The position numbers and the translations under genes were made by a program. 64,000 nt of DNA, taken from the sequence record NC_054910.1; one strand, 5' to 3'. Numbering within the stretch: the stretch's first letter is position 1; every line of letters begins with the position of its first letter. The stretch is from Escherichia phage EcNP1. Under the pieces are notes generated by a model. That model saw only the letters and a program-made list of their open reading frames with translations. It searched no databases and was not told where the DNA came from. This document shows, piece after piece, positions 18,897 to 64,000 of this stretch.

Positions 18897-19367
18897 TTAA
18901 TCATGTTTCCACACCCCATCGGTATTTGACCAAAGTCGCTGATTATCTGATCCTCGCCACAGCTTTTTGGTCGGAAGATTTTTCTCATACTTCCCATCAA
19001 TAATAACATCAACATATTTAAGCATTTCTAGTTGTTTAATATCTTCAAACTTATATCCTGTCCACAACCAAATGCTTTTATTGGGATAAAGATTTTTTAC
19101 TGTTTGAACAATGCAATGAACAACATCTCTATTATCAGGATAAAGAGGGTCTCCTCCAGTTATAGTTAATCCTTCTATATAATCATTATTCAAACATTTA
19201 ATTAATTGTTCCAGTGTTTCACCAGTGAATGGAACGCCATTTCTAGCATTCCACGTTGATTTATTATAACACCCTTCGCATTTATGCAAACAACCTGTAA
19301 CGAAAAGAACGACCCTGCATCCAGGGCCATTCACAAAATCGCAGGGATAAAATCTATCGTAATTCAT
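18897..19367 (-). CDS. nrdG: Anaerobic ribonucleotide reductase activase (radical SAM, CLHKCEGC)
   Basis: 156 aa; CxxxCxxC motif; T4 NrdG position. Confidence 0.92.
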   Translation of the reverse strand: MNYDRFYPCDFVNGPGCRVVLFVTGCLHKCEGCYNKSTWNARNGVPFTGETLEQLIKCLNNDYIEGLTITGGDPLYPDNRDVVHCIVQTVKNLYPNKSIWLWTGYKFEDIKQLEMLKYVDVIIDGKYEKNLPTKKLWRGSDNQRLWSNTDGVWKHD

Positions 19368-21181
19368 TGGTGTTTAACCCTATGCATGATTTCTTTATTT
19401 TTGCCGAGATTAAATCCGCGTTCATTCGGATTTCCCAAATAACCACAAGTTCTTCTTATTGTGTTCATCTTTTTAGGATCAGTTTCTCCACAAATAGAAC
19501 AAACAAACCCGTTTTCAGTAGGAGTCATTTCATGGGTACTTCCACACGTAAAACATTTATCTACTGGCATGTTAACACCAAAATAATCTAAATGTTGTGC
19601 AGCATAATCCCATACAGCCTCAAGACCTTTTAGGTTATTTTTCATATCAGGAAGTTCAACATAAGAAATGTGACCACCTGTCGCAATGAAATGATATGGG
19701 GCTTCGCGAGAAATCTTTTCAAATGGAGTAATATTTTCTTCTACCGAAACGTGGAAACTGTTAGTGTACCAGCCTTTATCGGTAACATCTTTTACACTTC
19801 CATATTTTTCGGTATCAAGTTTACAGAAGCGATAGCACAGGTTTTCAGCAGGTGTAGAATACAAACTAAAAGCAAAACCGGTTCTTTCAGTCCACTGCTT
19901 AAGATGAGCATTCATTTTAGTTAAAATTTCTTGTCCAATATCACGACCGACAAGAATATTCAATTCGTGAATACCAATGTATCCTAAGGACACTGAACTT
20001 CTACCGTTTTTAAATAACTCAATTATATCGTCATCAGGTTTAAGACGAACCCCGAATGCACCTTCTTGGTAAAGAATAGGAGCAACAGTAGCTTTAACTC
20101 CTTTTAAGGAACTAATTCTACACATCAATGCTTCAAAACATAAATCCATTCGCTCATTGAACAATTCGGCAAATTTCTGTTCATTGAACTGTGTTCCAAT
20201 ATAAGAATCTAGCGCAATGCGAGGAAGATTCAGTGTTACAACACCAAGATTATTACGTCCATCAAGAATTTCATTACCAGTCGAATCTTTCCATACACTC
20301 AAGAAACTACGACAACCCATTGGAGAAACAGGAATAGATGAACCGGTGATAGCTTTATTGTTCTTAGCCGAAATGATGTCAGGATACATTCTTTTACTTG
20401 CACACTCTAGAGCAAGCTGCTTAATATCATAGTTCGGATCGTCTTTATAAAGATTAACACCTTCTTCAACGAACATAACAAGTTTAGGGAAAATAGGAGT
20501 TATCCCGTCACGACCAAGACCTTTAATACGATTTTTCAGAATTGCTTTCTGAATCATTCGTTCAGTCCAGTCAGTTCCCGTACCAAATGTAATTGTTACA
20601 AAAGGCGTTTGTCCGTTTGAACTAAAGAGAGTATTTACTTCATATTCATAAGCTTGGAATGCATCGTATACGTCTTTTTCTGTTTTAGATTGGGCATAAT
20701 TCAATGCATCAGCGATTTGCCATTTTTCTGCATCCTCAATGTGTTTTGCGTAGGTGCGTTTAACATAAGGAGAAAGGACTTTATCTACATTCGCAAAAGT
20801 CGTTCCGCCATATTGATGAGAAGCAACCTGTGCAGTAATTTGTGCCATAATTGCAGTAGCAACGCCGATTGATTTAGGAGTTTCAATCTGTGCATTACCG
20901 AGCTTAAATCCGTTCTCAAGCATTCCTTTTAAATCTACTAAACAACAATTAGTAAATGGAAGAGCAGGGGAATAATCAATATCGTGGAAATGGATAATTC
21001 CGCTTTCATGCGCTTTCATAATAAAAGACGGGACCATATTTTTGGCAATGTGTTTAGACACAATACCAGCCATAAGGTCCCGTTGAGTTGGAAAAACACG
21101 AGAATCTTTATTAGCATTCTCGTTTAAAAGGTCTTTATTAGTTTTATGAATCAATCCTTCAATTTCTTTTTCAATTGTCAT
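19364..21181 (-). CDS. nrdD: Anaerobic ribonucleoside-triphosphate reductase, uninterrupted
   Basis: Contiguous 605 aa ORF; C-terminal glycyl-radical and Zn-ribbon region (CGYLG, CxxC); no intron. Confidence 0.95.
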   Translation of the reverse strand: MTIEKEIEGLIHKTNKDLLNENANKDSRVFPTQRDLMAGIVSKHIAKNMVPSFIMKAHESGIIHFHDIDYSPALPFTNCCLVDLKGMLENGFKLGNAQIETPKSIGVATAIMAQITAQVASHQYGGTTFANVDKVLSPYVKRTYAKHIEDAEKWQIADALNYAQSKTEKDVYDAFQAYEYEVNTLFSSNGQTPFVTITFGTGTDWTERMIQKAILKNRIKGLGRDGITPIFPKLVMFVEEGVNLYKDDPNYDIKQLALECASKRMYPDIISAKNNKAITGSSIPVSPMGCRSFLSVWKDSTGNEILDGRNNLGVVTLNLPRIALDSYIGTQFNEQKFAELFNERMDLCFEALMCRISSLKGVKATVAPILYQEGAFGVRLKPDDDIIELFKNGRSSVSLGYIGIHELNILVGRDIGQEILTKMNAHLKQWTERTGFAFSLYSTPAENLCYRFCKLDTEKYGSVKDVTDKGWYTNSFHVSVEENITPFEKISREAPYHFIATGGHISYVELPDMKNNLKGLEAVWDYAAQHLDYFGVNMPVDKCFTCGSTHEMTPTENGFVCSICGETDPKKMNTIRRTCGYLGNPNERGFNLGKNKEIMHRVKHQ

Positions 21182-38597: not shown

Positions 38598-38918
38598 TTA
38601 TTCTTTAAATCTAATCAATTTATTCATAGACTTTGAAACTTCTGCACGAACCTCATGTAAATTTTTGAGTTGCTCAAGACGCTGCGCATAGTAAGCAATT
38701 TCATCTTCTTCGAGACAGTCCTGTGAATCTTCTTTAAGATAACGCGCATAGTCCTGGAAAGCGTTACGGACTACTTCCTGGAAGTCATCAAGACTTTGAA
38801 TTTTCTTAGGAGCAACAGATACACGACGAGGGGCAGTATAATACTCATAACCAAACCCTGCGCTTAATTGAGCCATTAATATTTTTCCTCTGGTTGGAAC
38901 ACTGCACGACAAGCCCAC
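38598..38918 (-). CDS. Hypothetical protein
   Basis: ORF track 106 aa. Confidence 0.6.
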
Positions 38919-39142
38919 ATACTGGCTTCTTTGAGTTTCGTTTTAGCAATAGTTAACTGATCGAGACTTTCAGCATAATTCTTCGCGAATTCACAGTCTT
39001 CACAATTATCTAGCGCTTCCCAGAATTCATCATATAAAGCATCAAAGATAAGTCCTAAACGAACTTCAGCATCTTTGATAGCATTCACTTTACTGATTTT
39101 ATCGTCAGTATGTGGCTTATAACCTTTAATGTCTTCAATCAT
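38876..39142 (-). CDS. Hypothetical protein
   Basis: ORF track 88 aa. Confidence 0.55.
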
Positions 39143-39356
39143 ATTTTACTTCCTCACCTGTTCCCAAATCATATTCAACTAAACGAATAGGTTCATGAAT
39201 GCCATATCCTTGAACAGAAATTTCTGTCGTAGGATAAATTCCATTAATATCACCCATGTTCCACGCTTCATTAAATTGCTGTTCGCCTGAATTACTAAAC
39301 CACTCGGCGAAAGCATTTAGCACATCTTCAGAACCTTCAATAATTATCTTTGCCAT
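39135..39356 (-). CDS. Hypothetical protein
   Basis: ORF track 73 aa. Confidence 0.55.
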   Translation of the reverse strand: MAKIIIEGSEDVLNAFAEWFSNSGEQQFNEAWNMGDINGIYPTTEISVQGYGIHEPIRLVEYDLGTGEEVKYD

Positions 39357-39718
39357 TACAAACTCTCAGTAAAGGTACGAGCAATAACGTCGCGTTGCTG
39401 CTCCGGAGTCAGAGAGTTAAAGCGAACTGCGTATCCGGATACACGGATGGTCAGCTGCGGATATTTTTCCGGATGCTTAACTGCATCTTCCAGAGTTTCG
39501 CGACGCAGAACGTTTACGTTCAGGTGTTGACCACCCTCGATTTTAACTGTAGGTCGTGTTTCAATTTCAATTTCACGGGCATGCAAACCATAGAAAATTT
39601 CTGGGTCTACAAAAGAATCCTCTTTAAAGGTTTTAGAAACAATAATTCGTGCTTGAATACCATCTTCAAAATAAATAGTACCTTTATGTGTGCCTTCAAG
39701 AATTTGGTATGCTTTCAT
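39356..39718 (-). CDS. Autonomous glycyl radical cofactor (GrcA/YfiD-like)
   Basis: C-terminal 61 aa ([10 protein letters not shown]...[29 protein letters not shown]) match E. coli GrcA as recalled; start at MKAYQ with RBS GAGAGG. Confidence 0.85.
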
Positions 39719-39726
39719 ATAACCTC

Positions 39727-40056
39727 TCAATTAGAAAATAAATTTATCCAAGATTGTTCTTTAATTAAAAATGGCTCAGAATCATATGCCATTAAACTTT
39801 GGGTGATTAGTCCTTTAAAAGGTCCATCAATAAATTCCATGGTAAAATATGGAATTTTATTCATTAATCTTGCATTAGGAGCAGTGCACAAAACTCTGCA
39901 TCCTTTGAATACACCTTTTTGTAATTTGTATTGCTTAGGATAAAATTCGCTCAAGACGTTGTTATTTGCCAAAATTTCAAAATGATTCACCAATTTATTT
40001 TTAACAGTTTTTGGCGAAAAATAAAGATATTCGAAAAGTTGCGTATCTGTCATCAT
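39727..40056 (-). CDS. Hypothetical protein
   Basis: Internal start MMTDTQ with ATGA overlap; ORF-track start 40107 also ATG. Confidence 0.55.
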
Positions 40057-48878: not shown

Positions 48879-48954
48879 TGGTCGAGGCAGTAGGGATCGA
48901 ACCTACGACCTAGGACTTAGAAGGTCCTTGCTCTTCCTTCTGAGCTATGCCTCG
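48879..48954 (-). tRNA. tRNA-Arg (anticodon UCU)
   Basis: Manual fold: acceptor CGAGGCA/UGCCUCG, T-arm GGTTCGATCC, anticodon loop CUUCUAA, encoded CCA. Confidence 0.85.
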
Positions 48955-48958
48955 GATT

Positions 48959-49033
48959 TGGCGGACGTGATAGGATTCGAACCTATAACCAATCGCTTAA
49001 CAGGCGATCGCTCTGCCATTGAGCTACACATCC
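48959..49033 (-). tRNA. tRNA-Asn (anticodon GUU)
   Basis: Manual fold: acceptor GGAUGUG/CACGUCC with G-U, anticodon stem AUCGC/GCGAU, loop CUGUUAA. Confidence 0.8.
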
Positions 49034-49037
49034 AAAT

Positions 49038-49124
49038 TGGTGGGGAGTGATGGAGTCGAACCACCCGAGTCGCAATGACAATGGATTTACAGTCCACACC
49101 GCTACCTCTACGGAATAACTCCCC
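49038..49124 (-). tRNA. tRNA-Tyr (anticodon GUA), long variable arm
   Basis: Manual fold: 87 nt, acceptor GGGGAGU/ACUCCCC, anticodon loop CUGUAAA. Confidence 0.8.
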
Positions 49125-49133
49125 AAATTAATT

Positions 49134-49208
49134 TGGTGGCCCTGGGTGGAATTGAACCACCATCTGGCGATTATGAGTCGCTTGCTTGAACCTTCCAGCT
49201 ACAGGGCC
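49134..49208 (-). tRNA. tRNA with anticodon CAU (Ile2-type or Met)
   Basis: Manual fold: acceptor GGCCCUG/CAGGGCC, perfect T-arm, anticodon loop CUCAUAA; occupies the T4 tRNA-Ile position. Confidence 0.75.
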
Positions 49209-49209
49209 T

Positions 49210-49285
49210 TGGTGCTGATTGACGGAATCGAACCGCCGACCTTCTCATTACAAGTGAGTTGCTCTACCTACTGAGCTAAATCAGC
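49210..49285 (-). tRNA. tRNA-Thr (anticodon UGU)
   Basis: Manual fold: acceptor GCUGAUU/AAUCAGC, anticodon loop CUUGUAA. Confidence 0.85.
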
Positions 49286-49290
49286 AAAAC

Positions 49291-49380
49291 TGGCGGAGGC
49301 GATAGGATTCGAACCTATGAGTCGCCGGAGCGACTGCCGGTTTTCAAGACCGGTGCATTAAACCACTCTGCCACGCCTCC
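49291..49380 (-). tRNA. tRNA-Ser (anticodon UGA), long variable arm
   Basis: Manual fold: 90 nt, acceptor GGAGGCG/CGCCUCC, anticodon stem CCGGU/ACCGG, loop CUUGAAA. Confidence 0.85.
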
Positions 49381-49382
49381 AG

Positions 49383-49456
49383 TCTCCATACAAGGATTTG
49401 AACCTTGGACCTCCTGATCCCAAATCAGGCGCTCTACCAAACTGAGCTACACGGAG
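49383..49456 (-). tRNA. tRNA-Pro (anticodon UGG)
   Basis: Manual fold: acceptor with two G-U pairs, anticodon loop UUUGGGA, CCA not encoded. Confidence 0.8.
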
Positions 49457-49466
49457 TAAATTAAAT

Positions 49467-49540
<74 letters not shown>

Positions 49541-49545
49541 AAATT

Positions 49546-49632
49546 TGGTGCGAGAAGTGGGACTCGAACCCACAAGGAAATCATTCCGCAGCATTTTAAG
49601 TGCTGTGCCTTTACCAATTTGACCATTCTCGC
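49546..49632 (-). tRNA. tRNA-Leu (anticodon UAA), long variable arm
   Basis: Manual fold: 87 nt, acceptor GCGAGAA/UUCUCGC, anticodon loop CUUAAAA. Confidence 0.85.
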
Positions 49633-49633
49633 G

Positions 49634-49706
49634 CTGGGAATAAAGGACTCGAACCTTTGCATCCTGGAATCAAAATCCAGTGCCTTACCAACTTGGCTAA
49701 TTCCCA
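49634..49706 (-). tRNA. tRNA-Gln (anticodon UUG)
   Basis: Manual fold: acceptor UGGGAAU/AUUCCCA, anticodon loop UUUUGAU. Confidence 0.85.
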
Positions 49707-49803: not shown

Positions 49804-50091
49804 TTACCATTTATGATAATACATATTTACGATGCAGTCAAGACCTAAAGGATTCTTGAAAATATCATATTCAAGAGGACCTTTTTCCGTTTCAATAAAG
49901 AAATCAAAGTTAACTGTGTTAAATTTACGGTCTTCCTTCACTAATTTAACTTGAGAAGATGAACGGTCAATGTAAACCTTTTCAACTTCAAAATATGTTA
50001 AAATGCCGTAATCATCAATCAAGGCTTTAGCTGCTTCTTGATCATATTTATATCCATTTTCAATGGATGATACTTTCGCATAAAGAATCAC
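49804..50091 (-). CDS. Hypothetical protein
   Basis: ORF track 95 aa. Confidence 0.62.
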   Translation of the reverse strand: MILYAKVSSIENGYKYDQEAAKALIDDYGILTYFEVEKVYIDRSSSQVKLVKEDRKFNTVNFDFFIETEKGPLEYDIFKNPLGLDCIVNMYYHKW

Positions 50092-50093
50092 TA

Positions 50094-50504
50094 TTAACCT
50101 CTATCAACAATAGCATGAGTATGAGCATTTACGATTTGCCACCAGTCGAAACGATTGGAACCATACTCTGGTTTATTTTCATTTTCTTTAATGATATCAC
50201 GCAGTTTATCTTCTGTTTCAGCATACGCAATCAAATCATCATATCCACCACAAGGATAGTAATTATCGCCTGCGAACAAAAGAAAATTTACTTTAGATGG
50301 GTCTACATAATAATGCTCTTTAGGATATTTAGTTCCTTTCCAATCAGTTACTTCAACATAACGGTAAGAAAATCCATTTTTACTTTCAACCCAACTCCAC
50401 GCTTCAAAAGGAGTATTAAAAACTCTATCAGGTATTAAATTACCTTCAAAATGAGAAGGATTTGCATAATCCCCAGCATAAACATAATATTCGTTAATAT
50501 TCAT
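50094..50504 (-). CDS. Hypothetical protein
   Basis: ORF track 136 aa. Confidence 0.68.
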   Translation of the reverse strand: MNINEYYVYAGDYANPSHFEGNLIPDRVFNTPFEAWSWVESKNGFSYRYVEVTDWKGTKYPKEHYYVDPSKVNFLLFAGDNYYPCGGYDDLIAYAETEDKLRDIIKENENKPEYGSNRFDWWQIVNAHTHAIVDRG

Positions 50505-50690
50505 TTATTCACCTTTAGAAATTTTATCCATAACGATAGCAATTAAACCAATTAAAAATGCTACTACAAGTGAAAACACATTTTCTGCTGTAGTTAATAA
50601 TCCGCATATAAATCCAACAAACATTGAAAAACTAAAAGCGGAAGCAGAAATTGCAATAGCAACATTTCGAATTAATTCACAGCGTTTCAT
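50505..50690 (-). CDS. Small membrane protein
   Basis: ORF track 61 aa, hydrophobic. Confidence 0.55.
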   Translation of the reverse strand: MKRCELIRNVAIAISASAFSFSMFVGFICGLLTTAENVFSLVVAFLIGLIAIVMDKISKGE

Positions 50691-50711
50691 TTTATTCTCC
50701 TCAGTAGTTGA

Positions 50712-50750
50712 TAGGGTAATAGTATCACAACTAAAACCCTATGTAAACAA
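50712..50750 (-). promoter_or_regulatory. T4-type early promoter
   Basis: Plus gggtaatagtatca...tgtaaacaactttgtgaaa (50742-50748). Confidence 0.7.
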
Positions 50751-50766
50751 CTTTGTGAAATATTTA

Positions 50767-51054
50767 TTACAAAAGATTTTTAGCAATAATCTTGAGATGT
50801 GCCGCAGAAATGTGTTTAGCTTTAAACAACGCAGTTTCTTCAGCAGGAGAGATAATGATTGTAGCACCATCCTTTTTAGCAGACCACCCATCACCTAGGT
50901 AAACAGTACCTTTGATTTCTTCGCCATCAACCAAACTAATCATTGGTTTACCTTCTCGTCCTTTATTTGCTTTAATAACTTCAGAAGTAAGAGTAGCTTC
51001 AGTAATAGTAGAAACCGGGGTAGTTGTAGAAGTAAATTCTTTGAAAGTTTTCAT
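50767..51054 (-). CDS. ipI: Internal protein I-like (CTS-like N-terminus MKTFKEF)
   Basis: 95 aa, same length and position as T4 ipI next to 57B. Confidence 0.78.
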   Translation of the reverse strand: MKTFKEFTSTTTPVSTITEATLTSEVIKANKGREGKPMISLVDGEEIKGTVYLGDGWSAKKDGATIIISPAEETALFKAKHISAAHLKIIAKNLL

Positions 51055-51077
51055 TTTATTTTCCTAATTAATTTTGA

Positions 51078-51116
51078 TGAGATAATAGTATCACTACCTC
51101 ATCAGCGTGTAAACAA
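51078..51116 (-). promoter_or_regulatory. T4-type early promoter
   Basis: Plus gataatagtatca...tgtaaacaactttgtgaaa (51108-51114). Confidence 0.7.
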
Positions 51117-51126
51117 CTTTGTGAAA

Positions 51127-51811
<685 letters not shown>

Positions 51812-51812
<1 letters not shown>

Positions 51813-52537
51813 TATAGTACCTTTAGTGTATTTTTAATTTTAGAAAAAAGTTCTTCAAGAGAACCATCGTTTGTAATTACTAAATCGCCATTACGAATTG
51901 GCAATCCAGCTTCTGTAATATGTGTATCATTGGATTTTTGACCAGGACGAACTACATGAATTACTGTAGCACCCATCGCCCTAGCCGCATCCATTTCATG
52001 GTCTTGACGAGTATCAGGAACGATATAATAATCATAACCTGAGTTAAATTTATCAAGATAATCTAAAGCAAATAATTTTACCCAATACATGCGGTCGAAG
52101 TTATTAACAATCAAATCCGTACCTAGGGCTTGCATCAGACGACGGACTGACCATTGATCTTCAATATTATTTATAACGTCAGCAATCTTATTAAATGCTA
52201 CGAAAGTAACTGATTCTTTTCCTTCGTCATCAAAAACAAACACACCTTTAATTGGGCTTTTACTATTAAGATAGCAAAATGCTTGTTCCATAATCGTAAT
52301 TACTTCTAATTTAGTCAGATTTAAATTAGTCTCACGATCATAGTCAATTCCTTCAAACTCTTTACGAGTTAAACAAGGATAGTCAGTGTTTGCTGCAAAT
52401 ACACCCCATGCATAAGCCAATGCATCTTTAATAGGACCAGCAAGTTGATATTTAACTGCAGAATAATTATTCATGATAAAATCTGCAGTAGTATCTTTTC
52501 CACTACGCTTTACACCACTTAAAAAGATTAGTTTCAT
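51812..52537 (-). CDS. 1: dNMP kinase
   Basis: 241 aa; P-loop GVKRSGKDT; T4 gp1 position. Confidence 0.93.
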
Positions 52538-52586
52538 ATGTTTCTCCTCAAATTTAGTTAAGATTATAACACATGAAACTGAAGCA

Positions 52587-53117
52587 TTAAACTTCTGCTA
52601 TAATTTTGCCATCTTTTTCTACTTGAAAATACGTATAAGGAATCGTTGCTGTACATACTAAAGCTGGGTCTGAATCTTCAGTGTAGCTAAATTCTACTTC
52701 AGACAGGTCAGAAACCCAAGGCTTATAAAAATTTATTGACATCACGATTTCAGTTTTACTATTATCTAAAATGTAAAGCGTAATGTATTCAGGACCTGTT
52801 TTTTGGGCAGTATTTTCACCTGTAAGATAGTTACTAGTTCCTAGCATCCATTCATACATTCCTATCCACGACTTAAGCTCTTCATCAACTATAAATCTCA
52901 CGATGAGTGGGTCATACTCAAATGTAACTCCTGGACGCTGTGCTCGGCCTAGTCCAAACGGCCCAGTCACGGTATCAGTAACAGGTATTCTAATTCCTGG
53001 AATAGGAACTGACTGAGCATTTAAAGTAAAAGCAGATGTAGTATTACTATGCGGTATTGATACTACAAAGTTAGTTGTATTTGCTTGGTTAAAAATTTGT
53101 TGTAGTGCTTGCGACAT
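52587..53117 (-). CDS. 3: Tail completion / sheath stabilizer gp3
   Basis: Start MSQALQQIFNQ (ATG 53115-53117, RBS GAGGAA), 176 aa as T4 gp3. Confidence 0.85.
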   Translation of the reverse strand: MSQALQQIFNQANTTNFVVSIPHSNTTSAFTLNAQSVPIPGIRIPVTDTVTGPFGLGRAQRPGVTFEYDPLIVRFIVDEELKSWIGMYEWMLGTSNYLTGENTAQKTGPEYITLYILDNSKTEIVMSINFYKPWVSDLSEVEFSYTEDSDPALVCTATIPYTYFQVEKDGKIIAEV

Positions 53118-53223
53118 ATATTCCTCATAATGCTTTATAAGTGTTGGTGGTATAATGGGTCTAAGTCCCTTCCATTCAATTCCAATTAGAACAAACAATA
53201 GAAAAGAATGGAAGATAATAGAA

Positions 53224-54048
53224 TTAGATATTTGACCAGACTTTGTTTGCAGAGAAACGTTTTCCTTTTGAAACGAACTGCTGAAGTGGCATTAATACAA
53301 CGTTCGCCCAGTCTTTCGGGGCGATTTCAACTAGGCTACCCATAATATTACCAGGTATATATGCCTTAATCATTTGGTCTGCACCCCTAAATCCTTTCAC
53401 TTGACTCCAATCAATTTTTAATTTCGTTTTATTAGTAATAGTAGGTGTATTTGCATATTGCTTTAAAAGCTCTTCTAGAAATTGCTGACGAGCTTTAGGT
53501 GGAATATAGTGCAAGTTCAATCCATACATTAAATTATGTTTACCTAAACCGAGGTAAATTATCAAAGGAAATTTATCCCAATAAGGAAGAGTTTCTTTGT
53601 GTTTAGCATCATAAGCAAAAGCATATATTCGTCCCGGCTGCGGTCGAACAACTTTATGTCCTTTTACTTGCTTAATAGTTTCAGCAAACCACTTTCTGGT
53701 TTTATTATTAATTGCTGCACCTTCATTACGAATTTTATCACGCAACGTTTGCCTGAATGAATTTATCATAAGCAGTTGTCTTTCTTGCTTATTGAGTTTA
53801 TTCATTGGTTTTGATTCAAGCTTTTGAATCTTTTCAGCCGTTTTAATTCCTGAAGCATATTTTGACATTGCCGAAGTAAACGTAGAGTATTTGATTCCTC
53901 TTTCTTCAGCAAATTGCTTTCCTGTCATTCCTTTTGCTTTGGCCTTTTTGTATTCAAGACCTATCTGAATCCATTTCTTTTCGTTTAATGATTGCTTAAC
54001 CTTTGGAACTTGGGGAGTGCTTTCATTAATTATTTGAAAAATAGCCAT
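53224..54048 (-). CDS. 2: DNA end protector protein gp2
   Basis: 274 aa, T4 gp2 size and position. Confidence 0.92.
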
Positions 54049-54500
54049 TATGCCCCCTTAAAGCCAAGAGCTCGTAATCCATCTTCTGTTAAAATTCTAA
54101 ATTTTATTCCACGCTTTTCAGCTAAAGATTGCGCTGCTTTCCATTTGTCAGTATTAACTGAATATGTATAAATTTCATTCATAAATCTTTTCTTCGCTGC
54201 AGTTGTTAGATGTGCTGGTTTAACTGGTGGTTGTGTTTCTTTTTTAGGTTTTATTTCAATAAAAAATTCTTGTCCAGAAGAATCTTTCATCCAAATATCC
54301 ATGAAGTATCTACGTTTTTTCCCTTCTGCATTACAAAAATAAGGAATTACTGCCGTTTCACTACCCCATGCAATAATTTCTGGATTTTTATCTAACCATT
54401 CAAAAAAGAATTTTTCCCAATTTGATCTATACGTAATTTTTTTAGGGTCACCTCTATATTTTGATATATTTTTAGGAACCCATTTTCCAGAATATGCCAT
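54048..54500 (-). CDS. 4: Head completion protein gp4
   Basis: 150 aa, T4 gp4 size and position; late promoter upstream. Confidence 0.92.
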
Positions 54501-54511
54501 TGGATTCTCCT

Positions 54512-54519
54512 TATAAATA
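54512..54519 (+). promoter_or_regulatory. Late promoter TATAAATA for gene 53
   Basis: tataaata about 29 nt upstream of gene 53 ATG; RBS caggaggg. Confidence 0.75.
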
Positions 54520-54526
54520 GATAATA

Positions 54527-54534
54527 TATTTATA
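54527..54534 (-). promoter_or_regulatory. Late promoter TATAAATA for gene 4, divergent from P53
   Basis: Plus tatttata, 27 nt upstream of gene 4 ATG on minus strand. Confidence 0.7.
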
Positions 54535-54547
54535 AACAGGAGGGCCC

Positions 54548-55138
54548 ATGCTCTTTACATTTTTTGATCCGATTGAATATGCGGCCAAAACGGTGAATAA
54601 AAACGCGCCGACTATTCCTATGACAGATATTTTTAGAAACTATAAAGACTATTTCAAACGTGCTCTTGCGGGATACCGTTTACGTACTTATTATATTAAA
54701 GGTTCACCACGCCCGGAAGAATTAGCAAACGCTATATATGGAAATCCACAGTTGTATTGGGTTTTATTGATGTGTAATGATAATTATGATCCGTATTATG
54801 GATGGATTACTTCGCAAGAAGCTGCTTATCAAGCATCTATCCAAAAATACAAAAATGTAGGTGGAGACCAAATAGTATATCATGTGAATGAGAATGGTGA
54901 AAAATTTTATAATTTAATATCATACGATGATAATCCATATGTTTGGTATGACAAAGGCGATAAAGCTAGAAAATACCCTCAATATGAAGGAGCACTTGCT
55001 GCAGTCGATACGTATGAAGCTGCTGTTCTTGAAAATGAAAAACTTCGTCAAATAAAAATAATAGCAAAATCAGACATCAATTCATTTATGAACGACCTTA
55101 TACGTATAATGGAGAAATCTTATGGAAATGATAAGTAA
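54548..55138 (+). CDS. 53: Baseplate wedge protein gp53
   Basis: 196 aa, T4 gp53 size and position. Confidence 0.93.
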   Translation: MLFTFFDPIEYAAKTVNKNAPTIPMTDIFRNYKDYFKRALAGYRLRTYYIKGSPRPEELANAIYGNPQLYWVLLMCNDNYDPYYGWITSQEAAYQASIQKYKNVGGDQIVYHVNENGEKFYNLISYDDNPYVWYDKGDKARKYPQYEGALAAVDTYEAAVLENEKLRQIKIIAKSDINSFMNDLIRIMEKSYGNDK

Positions 55139-56849
55139 TAACCTTAATTGGTTTGTTGGTGTTGTTGAAGATAGAATGGACCCATTAAAATTAGGTCGTG
55201 TTCGTGTTCGTGTGGTTGGTCTGCATCCACCTCAAAGAGCGCAAGGCGACGTAATGGGTATTCCAACCGATAAATTACCATGGATGTCAGTTATTCAACC
55301 TATAACTTCTGCAGCAATGTCTGGAATTGGAGGCTCCGTTACTGGTCCAGTAGAAGGAACTAGAGTTTATGGTCATTTTTTAGACAAATGGAAAACTAAC
55401 GGAATTGTCCTTGGCACATATGGCGGAATAGTTCGTGAAAAACCTAATAGACTTGAAGGCTTTTCTGACCCAACTGGACAGTATCCTAGACGTCTAGGAA
55501 ATGATACTAACGTATTAAACCAAGGCGGAGAAGTAGGATATGATTCGTCTTCTAATATTATCCAAGATAGCAATCTAGATACTGCGATAAATCCTGATGA
55601 TAGACCGCTATCAGAAATTCCAACTGATGATAATCCAAATATGTCAATGGCTGAAATGCTTCGCCGCGATGAAGGATTAAGACTAAAAGTTTATTGGGAT
55701 ACTGAAGGATATCCGACAATTGGTATTGGTCATCTTATCATGAAGCAGCCAGTTCGTGATATGACTCAAATTAATAAAGTTTTATCAAAACAAGTTGGTC
55801 GTGAAATTACCGGAAATCCAGGTTCTATTACAATGGAAGAAGCGGTAACTTTATTTGAACGCGATTTGGCTGATATGCAACGTGACATTAAATCACATTC
55901 TAAAGTTGGCCCAGTTTGGCAAGCAGTTAATCGTTCCCGTCAAATGGCATTAGAAAATATGGCATTTCAGATGGGTGTTGGCGGTGTAGCTAAATTTAAC
56001 ACAATGTTAACAGCTATGTTAGCCGGAGATTGGGAAAAAGCATATAAAGCTGGTCGTGATTCATTGTGGTATCAACAAACAAAAGGCCGTGCATCCCGTG
56101 TTACCATGATTATTCTTACAGGGAATTTGGAATCATATGGTATTGAAGTGAAAACACCAGCTAGGTCTTTGTCAGCAATGGCTGCTACTGTAGCAAAGTC
56201 TTCTGATCCAGCTGACCCTCCTATTCCGAATGATTCGAGAATTTTATTTAAAGAACCTGTTTCTTCATATAAAGGTGAATATCCATATGTTCACACAATG
56301 GAAACTGAAAGCGGTCATATTCAGGAATTTGATGATACGCCTGGACAAGAACGATACAGATTAGTTCATCCGACTGGAACATATGAGGAAGTATCACCGT
56401 CAGGAAGAAGAACAAGAAAAACTGTTGATAATTTGTATGATATAACAAATGCTGACGGTAATTTTTTGGTAGCCGGCGATAAAAAGACTAACGTCGGTGG
56501 ATCAGAAATTTACTACAACATGGATAATCGTCTTCACCAAATAGATGGAAGCAACACAATATTTGTCCGTGGCGATGAAACTAAGACAGTTGAAGGTAAT
56601 GGAACTATCCTAGTTAAAGGTAATGTTACTATTGTAGTCGAAGGTAATGCTGACATTACAGTTAAAGGAGATGCTACCACTTTAGTTGAAGGAAATCAGA
56701 CTAATACAGTAAATGGAAATCTTTCTTGGAAAGTTGCTGGAACAGTTGATTGGGACGTTGGTGGTGATTGGACAGAAAAAATGGCATCTATGAGTTCTAT
56801 TTCATCTGGTCAATACACAATTGATGGATCGAGGATCGACATTGGCTAA
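55122..56849 (+). CDS. 5: Baseplate hub / tail lysozyme gp5
   Basis: 575 aa; lysozyme domain MAEMLRRDEGLRLKVYWDTEGYPTIGIGH; beta-helix VxG repeats. Confidence 0.96.
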   Translation: MEMISNNLNWFVGVVEDRMDPLKLGRVRVRVVGLHPPQRAQGDVMGIPTDKLPWMSVIQPITSAAMSGIGGSVTGPVEGTRVYGHFLDKWKTNGIVLGTYGGIVREKPNRLEGFSDPTGQYPRRLGNDTNVLNQGGEVGYDSSSNIIQDSNLDTAINPDDRPLSEIPTDDNPNMSMAEMLRRDEGLRLKVYWDTEGYPTIGIGHLIMKQPVRDMTQINKVLSKQVGREITGNPGSITMEEAVTLFERDLADMQRDIKSHSKVGPVWQAVNRSRQMALENMAFQMGVGGVAKFNTMLTAMLAGDWEKAYKAGRDSLWYQQTKGRASRVTMIILTGNLESYGIEVKTPARSLSAMAATVAKSSDPADPPIPNDSRILFKEPVSSYKGEYPYVHTMETESGHIQEFDDTPGQERYRLVHPTGTYEEVSPSGRRTRKTVDNLYDITNADGNFLVAGDKKTNVGGSEIYYNMDNRLHQIDGSNTIFVRGDETKTVEGNGTILVKGNVTIVVEGNADITVKGDATTLVEGNQTNTVNGNLSWKVAGTVDWDVGGDWTEKMASMSSISSGQYTIDGSRIDIG

Positions 56850-57378
56850 TATACTTCCAATGAGCGCTGATTTAGGAGAATCCATGGAAGGTTCTTCTAT
56901 TGACGTCACCTTTACCGCTCAATTAGAAACAGGTGAAACGTTAGTATCTATAAATATAACTAGTTACGAAGAAACTCCTGGGGTTTTAGTAGAAGAAAAT
57001 CGTTTATATGGAACGTATGAATCTGTGTTTGGATTTGGAAATGACGCACTAAAATATCGTTTAGATAATGAATTTAAAACTGCTGCTTCATGGGAAGACC
57101 TTCCAACTGATTCTAATACTCAGTTATATCTATGGAAAGCTCCTCAAAACCTCCAGAAGACATTCACTTACGAAGTAACATTAATATATGACTATCAAGA
57201 ACAAAGTGAATCTGGAGGTTCTGGTAGTAATTCTAGGTCATCTTCTGATACTACTGAACCAACGGATCCTCCTGCTCCAATAAGAAAAACTCTTGTTAAA
57301 AATTACACAAAAACTATAGTTGGAAATTGGAGTCGTTGGGCTAATAAATTAAGAAGCTACGTATATGAGAGGCAATAA
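56821..57378 (+). CDS. Hypothetical protein (T4 5.1 position)
   Basis: ORF track 185 aa. Confidence 0.7.
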
Positions 57379-57671
57379 TGTCAGGATTAAGTTATGATAA
57401 GTGTGTTACTGCTGGTCATGAAGCGTGGCCTCCAACAGTTGTGAATGCTACACAAAGTAAAGTATTCACTGGAGGAATTGCTGTTCTCGTGGCAGGTGAT
57501 CCAATTACAGAACATACAGAAATTAAAAAGCCATATGAAACACATGGCGGAGTGGCACAACCTAGAACTTCTAAGGTATATGTCACTGGAAAGAAAGCTG
57601 TTCAAATGGCTGATCCAATATCATGCGGTGATACTGTGGCTCAGGCATCATCTAAAGTATTCATTAAATAG
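57378..57671 (+). CDS. 5.4: Spike tip protein gp5.4-like
   Basis: 97 aa, T4 gp5.4 size and position. Confidence 0.82.
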
Positions 57672-57679
57672 GATTTAAA

Positions 57680-59662
57680 ATGGCAAAGACCCCTGTAAAT
57701 TATCAATTAACAAGAACAGCAAATGCTATTCCCGAGATATTCGTCGGGGGTACATTTGCTGAAATAAAACAAAACCTCATTGAATGGCTTAATGGCCAAA
57801 ATGAATTTTTGGATTATGATTTTGAAGGCTCAAGATTAAACGTTCTGTGTGACCTTTTGGCTTATAATACATTGTACATTCAGCAGTTTGGTAATGCTGC
57901 CTTGTATGAAAGCTTTATGCGTACTGCTAATTTGCGTAGTTCAGTAGTTCAAGCTGCGCAAGATAATGGATATTTACCTACTTCAAAATCAGCTGCTCAA
58001 ACTGAAATTATGCTAACTTGCACAGACGCATTGAATAGAAATTACATTACTATTCCTCGCGGTACTCGCTTTTTAGCATATGCAAAAGATACTTCCGTTA
58101 ATCCTTATAACTTTGTATCTACTGAAGATGTTATTGCTATTCGCGATAAAAATAACCAATATTTTCCGCGTTTAAAATTAGCCCAAGGACGTATAGTAAG
58201 AACTGAAATCATTTATGATAAATTAACACCTATTATCATTTATGACAAAAATATAGATAGAAACCAAGTTAAACTATACGTTGATGGAGCAGAATGGATT
58301 AACTGGACAAGAAAGTCAATGGTTCATGCTGGTTCTACATCAACAATTTACTACATGCGTGAAACTATTGATGGAAATACTGAATTTTATTTTGGTGAAG
58401 GTGAGATTTCCGTTAATGCAGCAGAAGGAGCATTGACCGCTAATTATATTGGAGGTCTTAAACCTACCCAGAACTCTACGATTGTTATTGAGTACATCAG
58501 TACTAACGGTGCAGATGCGAATGGCGCAGTCGGATTTTCATATGCAGATACATTAACAAATATAACTGTCATCAATATTAATGAAAATCCAAACGACGAC
58601 CCAGATTTCGTTGGAGCAGACGGCGGTGGTGACCCAGAAGATATTGAGCGTATTCGCGAATTGGGTACTATTAAACGCGAAACCCAGCAACGCTGCGTAA
58701 CTGCGACTGACTATGATACATTCGTTTCAGAGAGATTTGGTTCTATTATTCAAGCAGTTCAGACGTTCACTGATTCTACTAAACCTGGTTATGCATTTAT
58801 TGCTGCTAAACCTAAATCAGGGCTATATTTAACTACTGTACAACGTGAAGATATTAAAAATTATCTCAAAGATTATAATTTAGCTCCTATTACGCCATCA
58901 ATTATTTCTCCTAATTACCTTTTTATTAAGACTAATTTAAAAGTCACATATGCTTTAAATAAGCTGCAAGAATCCGAACAGTGGCTTGAAGGTCAAATAA
59001 TTGATAAAATTGATCGTTATTATACCGAAGATGTAGAAATTTTTAACTCATCTTTCGCTAAATCTAAGATGTTGACATATGTAGATGATGCAGATCATTC
59101 TATCATTGGCTCATCAGCGACAATTCAAATTGTTCGTGAAGTACAAAACTTCTATAAAACGCCTGAAGCAGGTATTAAATACAATAATCAAATAAAAGAC
59201 CGTTCTATGGAATCTAATACGTTTTCATTTAATTCTGGACGAAAGGTTGTAAATCCTGATACTGGTTTAGAAGAAGATGTATTATATGACGTTCGCATAG
59301 TATCAACAGACCGAAATTCTAAAGGAATTGGTAAAGTTATTATTGGTCCATTTGCTTCTGGCGATGTTACGGAAAATAAAAACATTCGTCCATATACAGG
59401 CAACGATTTTAATAAATTAGCAAATTCTAGTGGACGCGACAAATACTATGTTATCGGTGAAATAAATTATCCAGCTGATATGATTTATTGGAATATCGCT
59501 AAAATTAATTTAACATCCGATAAATTTGAGGTTCAGACTATTGAACTATATTCTGATCCAATAGACGATGTTATTTTCACACGTGATGGTTCACTGATTG
59601 TATTTGAAAATGATTTACGCCCGCAATACTTAACTATCGATTTGGAGCCTATATCACAATGA
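57680..59662 (+). CDS. 6: Baseplate wedge protein gp6
   Basis: 660 aa as T4 gp6. Confidence 0.95.
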   Translation: MAKTPVNYQLTRTANAIPEIFVGGTFAEIKQNLIEWLNGQNEFLDYDFEGSRLNVLCDLLAYNTLYIQQFGNAALYESFMRTANLRSSVVQAAQDNGYLPTSKSAAQTEIMLTCTDALNRNYITIPRGTRFLAYAKDTSVNPYNFVSTEDVIAIRDKNNQYFPRLKLAQGRIVRTEIIYDKLTPIIIYDKNIDRNQVKLYVDGAEWINWTRKSMVHAGSTSTIYYMRETIDGNTEFYFGEGEISVNAAEGALTANYIGGLKPTQNSTIVIEYISTNGADANGAVGFSYADTLTNITVININENPNDDPDFVGADGGGDPEDIERIRELGTIKRETQQRCVTATDYDTFVSERFGSIIQAVQTFTDSTKPGYAFIAAKPKSGLYLTTVQREDIKNYLKDYNLAPITPSIISPNYLFIKTNLKVTYALNKLQESEQWLEGQIIDKIDRYYTEDVEIFNSSFAKSKMLTYVDDADHSIIGSSATIQIVREVQNFYKTPEAGIKYNNQIKDRSMESNTFSFNSGRKVVNPDTGLEEDVLYDVRIVSTDRNSKGIGKVIIGPFASGDVTENKNIRPYTGNDFNKLANSSGRDKYYVIGEINYPADMIYWNIAKINLTSDKFEVQTIELYSDPIDDVIFTRDGSLIVFENDLRPQYLTIDLEPISQ

Positions 59663-62600
59663 CAGTAAAAGCACCTTCAGTCACTAGTCTCAGAATTTCC
59701 AAGTTATCCGCAAATCAGGTGCAAGTACGCTGGGATGACGTTGGTGCTAATTTCTACTATTTTGTAGAAATCGCTGAGACAAAAACAAACTCGGGGGAAA
59801 ATCTCCCGAGTAATCAATACAGATGGATTAACTTAGGATATACTGCAAATAACAGCTTCTTTTTTGATAATGCTAATCCATTGACATCGTACATTATTAG
59901 AGTAGCTACAGCTGCGCAGGATTTTGAGCAGTCTGATTGGATTTATACCGAAGAGTTTGAAACTTTTGCTACAAACGCTTATACATTTCAAAACATGATT
60001 GAAATGCAATTAGCTAATAAATTCATTCAGGAAAAATTTACTCTTAATAATTCTGACTATGTTAATTTTAATAATGATACTATAATGGCTGCATTGATGA
60101 ATGAATCATTCCAATTCAGCCCATCATATGCTGATGTTTCATCAATAAGTAATTTTATTATTGGTGAAAATGAGTATCATGAAATACAAGGTTCTATTCA
60201 GCAAGTATGTAAGGATATTAATCGAGTTTATTTGATGGAATCAGAAGGGATTCTATATCTTTTTGAGCGTTATCAACCTGTAGTTAAAGTATCCAATGAT
60301 AAAGGTCAAACCTGGAAAGCTGTAAAGCTCTTCAATGACCGTGTAGGATATCCTTTATCTAAGACTGTATATTACCAATCTGCGAGCACAACATACGTTC
60401 TAGGATACGACAAGATTTTCTATGGCCGCAAATCTACTGATGTTAGATGGTCAGCTGATGATGTCAGATTTAGTTCGCAGGATATAACATTCGCTAAACT
60501 TGGTGATCAACTTCATTTGGGATTTGATGTTGAAATCTTTGGTACTTATGCTACATTACCTGCAAATGTGTATCGTATAGCTGAAGCTATTACTTGCACC
60601 GATGATTACATTTACGTTGTCGCCAGAGACAAAGTTAGATACATAAAAACGAGTAATGCACCTATAGATTCTGATCCATTATCTCCAACATATTCGGAAA
60701 GACTTTTTGAACCTGATACAATGACTATAACCGGAAATCCTAAAGCAGTATGCTATAAAATGGATTCTATCGGTGATAAAGTTTTTGCTCTTATTATTGG
60801 TGAAGTTGAAACATTAAATGCTAATCCTAGAACATCAAAAATAATTGATTCTGATGATAAAGGAATATACGTTTTAAATCATGATACAAAAACGTGGAAA
60901 AGAGTTTTTGGCAACACTGAAGAAGAAAGAAGACGTATTCAACCTGGATATGCGAATATGTCAACTGATGGTAAATTAGTTTCTCTGTCTTCGAGTAATT
61001 TTAAATTTTTAAGTGATAACGTTGTTAATGACCCTGAAACTGCAGCGAAATATCAGTTAATCGGTGCTGTTAAATATGAATTTCCTCGTGAATGGCTAGC
61101 CGATAAGCATTATCATATGATGGCATTTATAGCAGATGAAAAATCTGATTGGGAAACTTTTACGCCTCAACCGATGAAATATTATGCAGAACCATTCTTT
61201 AACTGGTCTAAAAAATCTAACACACGTTGTTGGATAAACAACTCTGACAGAGCTGTAGTAGTTTATGCTGATTTAAAATACACCAAAGTTATAGAAAATA
61301 TTCCGGAAACATCGCCAGATAGATTAGTTCATGAATACTGGGATGATGGTGATTGTACGATAGTAATGCCAAATGTTAAATTCACGGGATTTAAAAAATA
61401 TGCGTCTGGGATGCTTTTTTATAAATCTTCTGGTGAAATAATTTCTTACTATGATTTTAACTATCGAGTGAGAGACACGGTTGAAATAATTTGGAAGCCA
61501 ACTGGAATATTTTTAAAAGCATTTTTACAAAATCAAGAGCGTGAAACTCCTTGGTCACCAGAAGAAGAGCATGGATTAGCTGACCCTGATTTAAGACCAT
61601 TGATTGGCACAATGATGCCTGATTCTTATTTATTACAAGATTCAAATTTTGAGGCATTTTGCGAAGCATATATTCAATATCTTTCTGATGGATATGGAAC
61701 TCAGTATAACAATTTACGAAATTTAATTCGTAACAAATATCCACGAGAAGAGCATGCGTGGGAATATTTGTGGTCAGAGATATATAAAAGAAACATTTAT
61801 TTAAATGCTGACAAACGTGATGCTGTTGCAAGATTTTTTGAATCACGTAGCTATGATTTTTATTCTACTAAAGGAATTGAAGCATCATACAAATTTCTTT
61901 TTAAAGTTCTTTATAATGAAGAAGTTGAAATTGAAATTGAATCTGGGGCTGGTACTGAATATGATATAATCATTCAATCTGATTCTTTGACTGAAGACTT
62001 AGTAGGACAAACGATTTATACAGCTACAGGAAGATGTAATGTTACTTATATAGAAAGAAGCTATTCTAATGGTAAATTGCAATGGACCGTAACTATTCAT
62101 AATCTTTTGGGAAGATTAATTGCTGGTCAAGAAGTTAAAGCAGAAAGACTCCCTAGTTTTGAAGGCGAAATTATTCGCGGGGTTAAAGGAAAGGATTTGC
62201 TTCAAAATAATATAGACTATATTAATAGAAGTCGATCATATTATGTAATGAAAATTAAATCCAATTTGCCTTCTTCCCGCTGGAAATCTGACGTTATTCG
62301 TTTTGTTCATCCAGTAGGATTTGGATTTATAGCAATTACTCTTTTAACAATGTTTATTAATGTCGGTTTAACTCTTAAACATACAGAGACTATAATTAAT
62401 AAATACAAAAACTACAAGTGGGATTCTGGATTGCCTACTGAATATGCTGATAGAGTAGCTAAATTAACTCCAACTGGTGAAATTGAACATGATTCAGTAA
62501 CAGGAGAAGCAATTTATGAACCTGGCCCAATGGCTGGTGTAAAATATCCTCTTCCTAATGACTATAATGCTGAAAATAATAATTCAATATTTCAAGGTCA

Positions 62601-62757
62601 ATTGCCTTCTGAACGACGCAAGTTAATGAGTCCTCTATTTGACGCATCTGGAACAACATTTGCACAGTTTAGGGATTTAGTTAATAAACGTCTAAAAGAT
62701 AATATAGGAAATCCAAGAGACCCTGAAAATCCAACACAGGTTAAAATAGATGAATGA
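59659..62757 (+). CDS. 7: Baseplate wedge protein gp7
   Basis: 1032 aa as T4 gp7. Confidence 0.95.
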   Translation: MTVKAPSVTSLRISKLSANQVQVRWDDVGANFYYFVEIAETKTNSGENLPSNQYRWINLGYTANNSFFFDNANPLTSYIIRVATAAQDFEQSDWIYTEEFETFATNAYTFQNMIEMQLANKFIQEKFTLNNSDYVNFNNDTIMAALMNESFQFSPSYADVSSISNFIIGENEYHEIQGSIQQVCKDINRVYLMESEGILYLFERYQPVVKVSNDKGQTWKAVKLFNDRVGYPLSKTVYYQSASTTYVLGYDKIFYGRKSTDVRWSADDVRFSSQDITFAKLGDQLHLGFDVEIFGTYATLPANVYRIAEAITCTDDYIYVVARDKVRYIKTSNAPIDSDPLSPTYSERLFEPDTMTITGNPKAVCYKMDSIGDKVFALIIGEVETLNANPRTSKIIDSDDKGIYVLNHDTKTWKRVFGNTEEERRRIQPGYANMSTDGKLVSLSSSNFKFLSDNVVNDPETAAKYQLIGAVKYEFPREWLADKHYHMMAFIADEKSDWETFTPQPMKYYAEPFFNWSKKSNTRCWINNSDRAVVVYADLKYTKVIENIPETSPDRLVHEYWDDGDCTIVMPNVKFTGFKKYASGMLFYKSSGEIISYYDFNYRVRDTVEIIWKPTGIFLKAFLQNQERETPWSPEEEHGLADPDLRPLIGTMMPDSYLLQDSNFEAFCEAYIQYLSDGYGTQYNNLRNLIRNKYPREEHAWEYLWSEIYKRNIYLNADKRDAVARFFESRSYDFYSTKGIEASYKFLFKVLYNEEVEIEIESGAGTEYDIIIQSDSLTEDLVGQTIYTATGRCNVTYIERSYSNGKLQWTVTIHNLLGRLIAGQEVKAERLPSFEGEIIRGVKGKDLLQNNIDYINRSRSYYVMKIKSNLPSSRWKSDVIRFVHPVGFGFIAITLLTMFINVGLTLKHTETIINKYKNYKWDSGLPTEYADRVAKLTPTGEIEHDSVTGEAIYEPGPMAGVKYPLPNDYNAENNNSIFQGQLPSERRKLMSPLFDASGTTFAQFRDLVNKRLKDNIGNPRDPENPTQVKIDE

Positions 62758-63754: not shown

Positions 63755-63759
63755 ATTAA

Positions 63760-63782
63760 GGGAGCCCATGGGCTCCCTTTTT
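63760..63782 (+). terminator. Rho-independent terminator after gene 8
   Basis: Palindrome gggagcccatgggctccc followed by ttttt. Confidence 0.75.
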
Positions 63783-63785
63783 CTT

Positions 63786-63793
63786 TATAAATA
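63786..63793 (+). promoter_or_regulatory. Late promoter TATAAATA for gene 9
   Basis: tataaata 25 nt upstream of gene 9 ATG. Confidence 0.75.
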
Positions 63794-63817
63794 CTATAAA
63801 CTCATAAGGAAACCGCT

Positions 63818-64000
63818 ATGTTCATTCAAGAACCAAAGAAATTGATTGATACCGGCGAAATTGGTAACGCTTCTACTGGTGATATCTTATTCGACGGTGG
63901 TAATAAAATTAATAGTGATTTTAACGCAATTTATAACGCGTTTGGCGATCAGCGTAAAATGGCAGTAGCAAATGGCACTGGTGCTAACGGCCAAATTATC
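63818..64000 (+). CDS. 9: Baseplate wedge / tail fiber socket gp9, N-terminal part
   Basis: Manual translation MFIQEPKKLIDTGEIGNASTGDILFDGG... matches T4 gp9 N-terminus as recalled; RBS aaggaaa. Confidence 0.85.
   Translation, partial: MFIQEPKKLIDTGEIGNASTGDILFDGGNKINSDFNAIYNAFGDQRKMAVANGTGANGQII

Follow-up and report, generated by a model that had tools for sequence, protein, structure and literature searches.

Phage T4 encodes a small protein, Y06I (gene vs.6), and Escherichia coli a related one, YfiD (GrcA); PMC8683613, citing Wagner 2001, describes both as being activated by the activase of pyruvate formate-lyase (PFL) and as restoring PFL that has been cleaved by O2. The gene had earlier been listed as a conserved Gly_radical open reading frame (ORF) of T4-like phages (PMC1524935). 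Exchange between phage and host within a metabolic gene has a precedent in cyanophage psbA, whose patchy content of guanine plus cytosine (GC) was ascribed to intragenic host–phage recombination (PMC3900582). Here we analyze the vs.6 gene of Escherichia phage EcNP1, which lies in a stretch of 64,000 nucleotides (nt) of sequence record NC_054910.1, referred to below as the window. Its 5′ half is of phage type, while its 3′ half, which encodes the glycyl-radical domain, is nearly that of the host gene grcA. We consider it likely, with good confidence, that this is an old phage grcA in which homologous gene conversion has time and again replaced the glycyl-radical half with host grcA sequence. 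Like cyanophage psbA, vs.6 is a host-derived metabolic gene of T4-like phages with host-like segments inside the gene. It differs from psbA in that in some phages the patch agrees base for base with an allele present in living hosts, its junctions are fixed across phage genera, it matches one particular host species (E. coli or Klebsiella pneumoniae), and the phages concerned break down the DNA of the host and have cytosine replaced in theirs. The gene, its family and its biochemical role are known from T4, and the annotation changes nothing in this respect; what is new concerns its evolution, and amounts to a further instance, in a familiar gene, of a process of known kind. Our literature search found no paper on nucleotide identity between vs.6 and host grcA or on a host-tracking mosaic; an earlier mention is possible.

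In a codon-by-codon comparison, the last 60 residues and the stop codon of the window gene proved identical to those of E. coli GrcA, as the initial annotation had stated for the last 61 codons. The likeness extends to the nucleotides: over the last 183 nt, identity to E. coli grcA is 95.6%, the eight differences being all synonymous and four of them located in the last three codons, and the longest exact run is 68 nt. A blastn search of 5,426 complete E. coli genomes with the 375-nt ORF aligned only positions 193–375 of the query (93–95.6% identity), and the first 180 nt had no match in these genomes. When the two genes were aligned under guidance of their proteins, the 5′ half agreed at 88 of 177 nt and the 3′ half at 172 of 180 (Fisher p = 1.6e-24), identity dropping at once upstream of GGT GGT CAA. 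Within the core tract (Table 1), 161 of the 168 nt agree with the common E. coli allele and 164 with a rarer, TR01-type allele considered below. The GC content of the two halves bears out the sharp composition boundary reported earlier, rising from 0.33 (0.17 at third codon positions, GC3) in the 5′ half to 0.50 (GC3 0.46) in the 3′ half, and the codon usage of the tract, previously described as E. coli-like, does fit the host and not the phage.

As a control, the whole 64 kb was searched by megablast against the same 5,426 genomes. Bases 25001–50000 matched only at the tract and at a tRNA-Tyr region, whereas neither bases 1–25000 nor bases 50001–64000 gave a match. The tract is the only E. 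coli-like coding stretch in the 64 kb; had the identity to grcA been no higher than that of other phage genes, the initial annotation would have withdrawn its reading of a mosaic. In most E. coli genomes a second megablast match falls somewhere within bases 25001–50000 of the window. The window also carries a cluster of 10 transfer RNA (tRNA) genes, of which the tRNA-Tyr region matches a 101.8-kb plasmid of E. coli O111:H8 at 91.6% by megablast.

The 5′ half had been called AT-rich and unrelated to grcA. It is indeed AT-rich (33% GC) and without a blastn match, but it is not unrelated. We compared the N-terminal halves only of eleven phage proteins and ten bacterial GrcA proteins as profiles with hhalign, so that no C-terminal anchor was included, and the two aligned over 61 columns with a probability of 97%, E = 7.8e-11 and 26% identity. 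A pattern common to phage and bacterial N-termini, AR-IV-K...ED followed by RE--(V/I)E--P-V, can be recognized. This homology indicates that the whole gene descends from a grcA and that only one half of it looks recent. Overall, the window protein shares with E. coli GrcA its last 60 residues, the glycine of the RVSGYAV motif and an N-terminal half that is homologous at profile level; it differs in that this half is only ~26% identical and seven residues shorter, and is encoded with phage codon usage.

The same left junction, between AAA ATT (or AAA GTT) and GAA GGT GGT, occurs in T4, in four other GenBank Tequatrovirus genomes, in Mosigvirus OLB35 and in six IMG/VR contigs, and in all of these the right limit lies just before the last three codons. 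For the initial annotation, a boundary present in all T-even homologues would have refuted the mosaic reading. Taken literally that boundary is common, being present in T4 and in every Tequatrovirus and Mosigvirus sampled, yet the interior of the tract differs among phages along host alleles and host species, so that the shared boundary does not refute recombination. Between Tequatrovirus and Mosigvirus, synonymous divergence (dS) is 0.8–2.2 in the flanking genes and 0.37–0.53 in the 5′ half of vs.6, but only 0.02–0.20 in the host-like tract. A tract so much less diverged between the genera than its surroundings is not the product of one old event.

The interior also follows particular E. coli haplotypes. 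Three phages drawn from both genera (slur03 and loci L097 and L100) are identical over 173–175 consecutive nt to grcA of strain SK1144, which stands for the common E. coli allele, their core-tract stretch being 100% identical to it. The window gene and that of Escherichia phage Nami instead carry all three variants (grcA positions 225, 306 and 357) that mark the TR01-type allele, named after strain TR01 and found in 82 of 5,433 E. coli records, together with four private synonymous changes. The chance of three parallel hits on these markers by independent mutation is about 2e-6. With TR01-type markers in these two phages and identity to SK1144 in others, no fewer than two exchanges, each with a different E. 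coli haplotype, must be assumed. It is in these markers and private changes that the window tract differs from vs.6 of T4, of which it is otherwise an orthologue with the same neighbours and the same mosaic junctions.

A parallel case is provided by the Klebsiella phages of the genus Jiaodavirus, which have a closely related 5′ half, the same two junctions and a tract with a GC3 of 0.6. Their tract is 95.4–96.6% identical to grcA of K. pneumoniae, 90.2% to that of K. aerogenes and 85.5% to that of E. coli. Compared in register with K. pneumoniae, it shows 7–8 differences in 168 nt and exact runs of 68–86 nt, and it departs from K. pneumoniae at the same right-hand place at which the E. coli phages depart from E. 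coli. The E. coli phages, for their part, differ from K. pneumoniae at 21–23 of the 168 positions, and E. coli grcA itself differs from K. pneumoniae grcA at 21. With the K. pneumoniae tract as query, 77 phage records were retrieved at 95–99% identity and 61 at 90–95%. The K. pneumoniae sequence was taken from a 5.37-Mb chromosome that the plasmid collection lists as a plasmid (L183, CP125156.1), since our bacterial comparison set consists of the best 80 GrcA loci by likeness to E. coli, among which K. pneumoniae and other Escherichia species are absent; in that set the best match of the Jiaodavirus tract is Pseudocitrobacter, at 88–90%. In the K. aerogenes NCTC10006 assembly (L184, LR134122.1), grcA carries a one-base insertion that causes a frameshift.

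Could a single recent event account for these data? One T-even phage might have captured an E. coli tract not long ago, the tract then spreading by co-infection through Tequatrovirus and Mosigvirus. Near the end of the gene, the fourth-last codon is GAG in all E. coli T-even alleles and the third-last is AGT in most, as one founding event would predict; this GAG lies within GAGAG, 8–12 nt 5′ of the ATG with which the next gene overlaps vs.6, and may be kept as the ribosome-binding site of that gene. Movement of 5′ halves between the two genera is also seen. Phage Pu-Krd-SF2 (PuKrd; L004, 612–974) combines flanks of Tequatrovirus type (dS 0.24 to the window) with a 5′ half of Mosigvirus type (dS 0.11 to Mosigvirus), and FL23 (L182, 310–672), although classified as a Tequatrovirus, has the same Mosigvirus-type 5′ half. 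The two sequences indicate exchange between the genera at vs.6, for which the host-derived block, identical over some 170 nt, would be an obvious crossover site. However, spread from one capture leaves unexplained the three linked TR01-type markers of the window and Nami as well as the K. pneumoniae-specific tract of Jiaodavirus with the same junctions, and it would still require a capture much younger than the split of the genera. We regard it as unlikely.

A single ancient capture, after which strong constraint on protein and codons kept the 3′ half host-like while the 5′ half drifted, is very improbable. The C-terminal domain is nearly invariant in protein across phages and bacteria, and this domain has to fit both host PFL and the activase PflA. 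Constraint on the protein does not conserve synonymous sites, however, and bacteria with the same protein differ from one another at dS 0.44–0.87. Other phage genera, moreover, have nearly the same protein encoded by AT-rich, saturated 3′ halves: in Karamvirus-like, Cronobacter, Aeromonas and T5-like phages the GC3 of this half is 0.2–0.3, its identity to any bacterium ~72–80% (~77% for the Karamvirus-like and other phages), and its exact runs with bacteria only 17–35 nt long, no longer than those between bacteria of different genera (median 18 nt, 95th percentile 32 nt). Such an AT-rich half has the look of an unconverted phage copy. Between the window and the Karamvirus-like phages, dS is ~0.67–0.69 in the 5′ half and 1.75–2.26, that is, saturated, in the 3′ half, an inequality which implies that the two halves have had different histories. 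Nor would ancient capture produce 173–175 nt that are exact with a living E. coli allele beside flanks with a dS of 0.8–2.2, or tracts specific to the host species.

Identity by itself says nothing about direction, and E. coli grcA could conversely have obtained its 3′ half from a T-even phage; the minor TR01-type allele in particular could be a phage-to-host patch. As a general explanation this is scarcely credible. E. coli grcA diverges from its relatives in step in both halves, with dS to Citrobacter of 0.44 (3′ half) and 0.57 (5′ half) and to Salmonella of 0.87 in each, Klebsiella giving the same picture, and its GC3 is alike in both (0.41 and 0.42). The tract of the window, with a GC3 of 0.46, fits that host value and not the 0.17–0.2 of the phage 5′ half and flanks, and K. 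pneumoniae and its phages repeat the pattern with a different sequence. Since E. coli grcA is not itself a mosaic, the direction was from host to phage. Among possible donors, dS of the phage tract is 0.09–0.30 to E. coli, 0.44–0.73 to Citrobacter and 1.2–2.0 to Salmonella, which points to Escherichia grcA as the source. Two other donors were tried and rejected: identity of the T-even tract to tdcE is only ~76%, and that of the Jiaodavirus tract to E. coli pflB is 82–83%, compared with 95% to K. pneumoniae grcA. Finally, an assembly or contamination artefact joining host reads to phage contigs, which the host-identical tract of some genomes might suggest, can be set aside, as the same in-frame junctions recur in about 600 independently sequenced phage records including T4, the last codons are phage-specific and there are synonymous changes private to lineages.

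Repeated conversion of an old phage grcA by host grcA is thus the reading that we prefer. The tract is nearer to the host than to related phages and the rest of the gene follows the phages, as in an intragenic host–phage recombination mosaic; the proposal of the initial annotation that the gene arose by recombination with host grcA is supported by the nucleotide identity, the step in composition and the matching of alleles and species. The sequences themselves show the mosaic, its fixed junctions, the host-to-phage direction, the decoupled divergence of the two halves and the matching of haplotype and species, whereas the recombination mechanism and any selective benefit are inferred. The N-terminal half of an old phage grcA would have diverged along with the phages, the junctions being the limits of the region in which phage and host genes retained enough similarity for pairing. 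Host sequence would first have entered the glycyl-radical half by a rare recombination event across diverged sequences; near-identity would then have eased further conversions, and the interior would have been reset to the allele of the current host, on two or more occasions from distinct E. coli haplotypes in the E. coli T-evens and, as a separate case, from K. pneumoniae in Jiaodavirus. It is fairly probable that the glycyl-radical half of vs.6 is a standing recombination target and that phages carry in it an up-to-date, species-specific segment of their host.

Several points weigh against this interpretation. The pattern rests on ~180 nt with ~45 synonymous sites, in which recombination is read from sequence. 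The common GAG and AGT codons would fit a single founding event followed by spread between phages, part of the uniformity of the tract may stem from phage–phage exchange, and the TR01-type allele of E. coli could in principle have come from a phage. Of the tracts sampled, that of the window itself stands farthest from E. coli; its seven in-tract differences imply that no recent reset has taken place in it. Conversion from host to phage should also be rare, given that T4 breaks down the DNA of its host and modifies its own. Nor did we find a Salmonella-like tract: no phage covered most of a 186-nt Salmonella query at 90% identity or more, the best near-full-length matches reaching ~84% and three shorter ones 90–95%. 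At the protein level, the C-terminal halves of E. coli and Klebsiella GrcA differ in two residues (LEDAVK in E. coli, LLDAVE in Klebsiella), and the phages split likewise; with so small a difference, a gain from matching the host protein is doubtful. More probably, identity at the nucleotide level arises as a side effect of conversion driven by homology.

Other loci recovered in the searches deserve mention. The phage-like grcA genes at loci L113–L118 carry a Haemophilus-specific NPDKYPQ signature, and one of them (L115, an IMG/VR contig, 601–990) shares a 56-nt exact run with grcA of Haemophilus sp. (L073, L078), above the 95th percentile of 32 nt in the cross-genus comparison; on this sequence match it may represent a third host-matched lineage. 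An IMG/VR locus (L123) that appeared to be a Yersinia-matched phage tract (91%) was rejected as a complete Yersinia-type bacterial grcA with a bacterial N-terminus, and loci L164–L170 were discarded as fragments of pflB.

The window gene was confirmed as a GrcA/YfiD-like glycyl-radical cofactor gene, as first annotated. Its product matches Pfam Gly_radical with 67.2 bits (cut-off 22.2), E. coli YfiD/GrcA (PDB 6owr) with E = 3e-42 and PFL (1cm5/1h16) with E = 4.9e-26, residues 58–120 aligning with residues 697–759 of PFL, and it contains the RVSGYAV motif. The GrcA/YfiD family (TIGR04365, IPR011140) comprises stand-alone proteins of ~14 kDa whose C-terminal ~60 residues are homologous to residues ~697–759 of PFL, and the window protein corresponds to it in size (120 residues) and in its C-terminal glycyl-radical domain of ~60 residues. 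It scores 153.9 bits over residues 20–120, below the TIGR04365 equivalog cut-off of 170 bits (E. coli GrcA, 233.9), because its N-terminal half has diverged.

At the nucleotide level vs.6 of the window is 99.2% identical to that of Nami and 93.6% to that of T4, and ~600 phage records, T4 included, reach 90% identity or more along the gene. Three residues, all in the N-terminal half, separate the window protein from T4 Y06I, and the gene order vs.7–vs.6–vs.5–vs.4–regB is as in T4. Gene order and identity establish the window gene as the orthologue of T4 vs.6 (Y06I), the T4 homologue already pointed out in the initial annotation. One correction concerns the start. The program had called the ORF at 39356–39730 on the minus strand with a TTG start, but this TTG shares nucleotides with the upstream gene's stop codon and precedes the Shine–Dalgarno sequence, while all annotated relatives begin at the same ATG (MKAYQ...), with the product given as 'autonomous glycyl radical cofactor'. 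The true start is therefore the ATG 12 nt downstream, at 39718. The closest relative of the gene, in Nami (L002, 3013–3375), has two amino-acid changes in an otherwise invariant tract, HLNVNV to HLHVNV and LTIRVSG to LTSRVSG, the latter adjoining the radical glycine. Errors of sequencing, or damage to this allele, may account for them.

Table 1. Location of vs.6, its parts and other features of the window
Feature	Position	Strand	Remarks
vs.6 / Y06I / phage grcA coding sequence	39356..39718	-	120 amino acids plus stop, ATG start; from ORF list and sequence
Phage-type 5′ half, codons 1–60	39539..39718	-	AT-rich; diverged GrcA N-terminal region; conserved among T4-like and T5-like phages
Core host-derived tract, gene positions 184–351	39368..39535	-	GGT GGT CAA ... 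TTT ACT; encodes the glycyl-radical domain
Gly95 codon, radical-bearing glycine of RVSGYAV	39434..39436	-	aligns with Gly_radical motif of GrcA and PFL
Phage-specific last three codons plus stop	39356..39367	-	GAG AGT TTG TAA (E. coli GAA AGC CTG TAA); right-hand limit of host-identical tract
Shine–Dalgarno sequence GAGAGG	39723..39728	-	4 nt 5′ of the ATG at 39718; read from sequence
Upstream gene, vs.7-like	39727..40056	-	no Pfam match
Downstream gene, vs.5-like	39135..39356	-	73 amino acids; translationally coupled to vs.6; no Pfam match
vs.4-like gene	38876..39142	-	88 amino acids; two genes downstream of vs.6; Pfam Acb2/Tad1 hairpin domain, 70.6 bits
nrdD	19364..21181	-	605 amino acids; Pfam NRDD 571 bits, and Gly_radical
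nrdG	18897..19367	-	156 amino acids; radical S-adenosylmethionine activase of NrdD
tRNA gene cluster	48879..49706	-	10 genes
tRNA-Tyr region	~49035..49127		megablast match to plasmid

By analogy with T4 Y06I, the product would be a stand-alone glycyl-radical 'spare part'. The role taken from the T4 protein predicts that the host activase PflA would install a radical on Gly95 and that the activated protein would take the place of the C-terminal fragment of oxygen-cleaved host PFL, so keeping up the supply of acetyl-CoA and formate in an infected cell that meets traces of oxygen. Class III ribonucleotide reductases use formate as reductant, and the window encodes a phage anaerobic ribonucleotide reductase, NrdD, with its activase NrdG. 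Rescued PFL would then feed both energy metabolism and phage synthesis of deoxynucleoside triphosphates by NrdD/NrdG at low oxygen. The nrdD and nrdG genes form a second glycyl-radical system in the window, and neither has a megablast match to E. coli.

Around vs.6, its stop codon overlaps the ATG of the vs.5-like gene (TAATG), and a scan for promoters and terminators found 9 promoter-like sites against 7.6 expected. The domain found in the vs.4-like gene, Acb2/Tad1, is that of a family of phage proteins that bind cyclic-nucleotide defence signals.

T-even phages are commonly regarded as shielded from host DNA, since they degrade it and have hydroxymethylcytosine in their own. Nevertheless, up to 175 nt of these virulent phages are host chromosome base for base, following the host species and even the haplotype, and we take this identity as direct sequence evidence of recent, probably ongoing, gene conversion from host to phage. 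The tract offers a species-level marker for predicting the hosts of T-even phages in metagenomes. grcA has also been proposed as a marker gene for typing Straboviridae by polymerase chain reaction (PCR) and quantitative PCR (PMC12845203); the conserved half is 95–100% identical to E. coli grcA, and primers placed there would amplify the host as well. If our reading is correct, virulent phages that degrade host DNA and replace the cytosine of their own still swap sequence with the host chromosome on short evolutionary timescales, and the identical host-derived block may also act as a crossover point between diverged phage genera.

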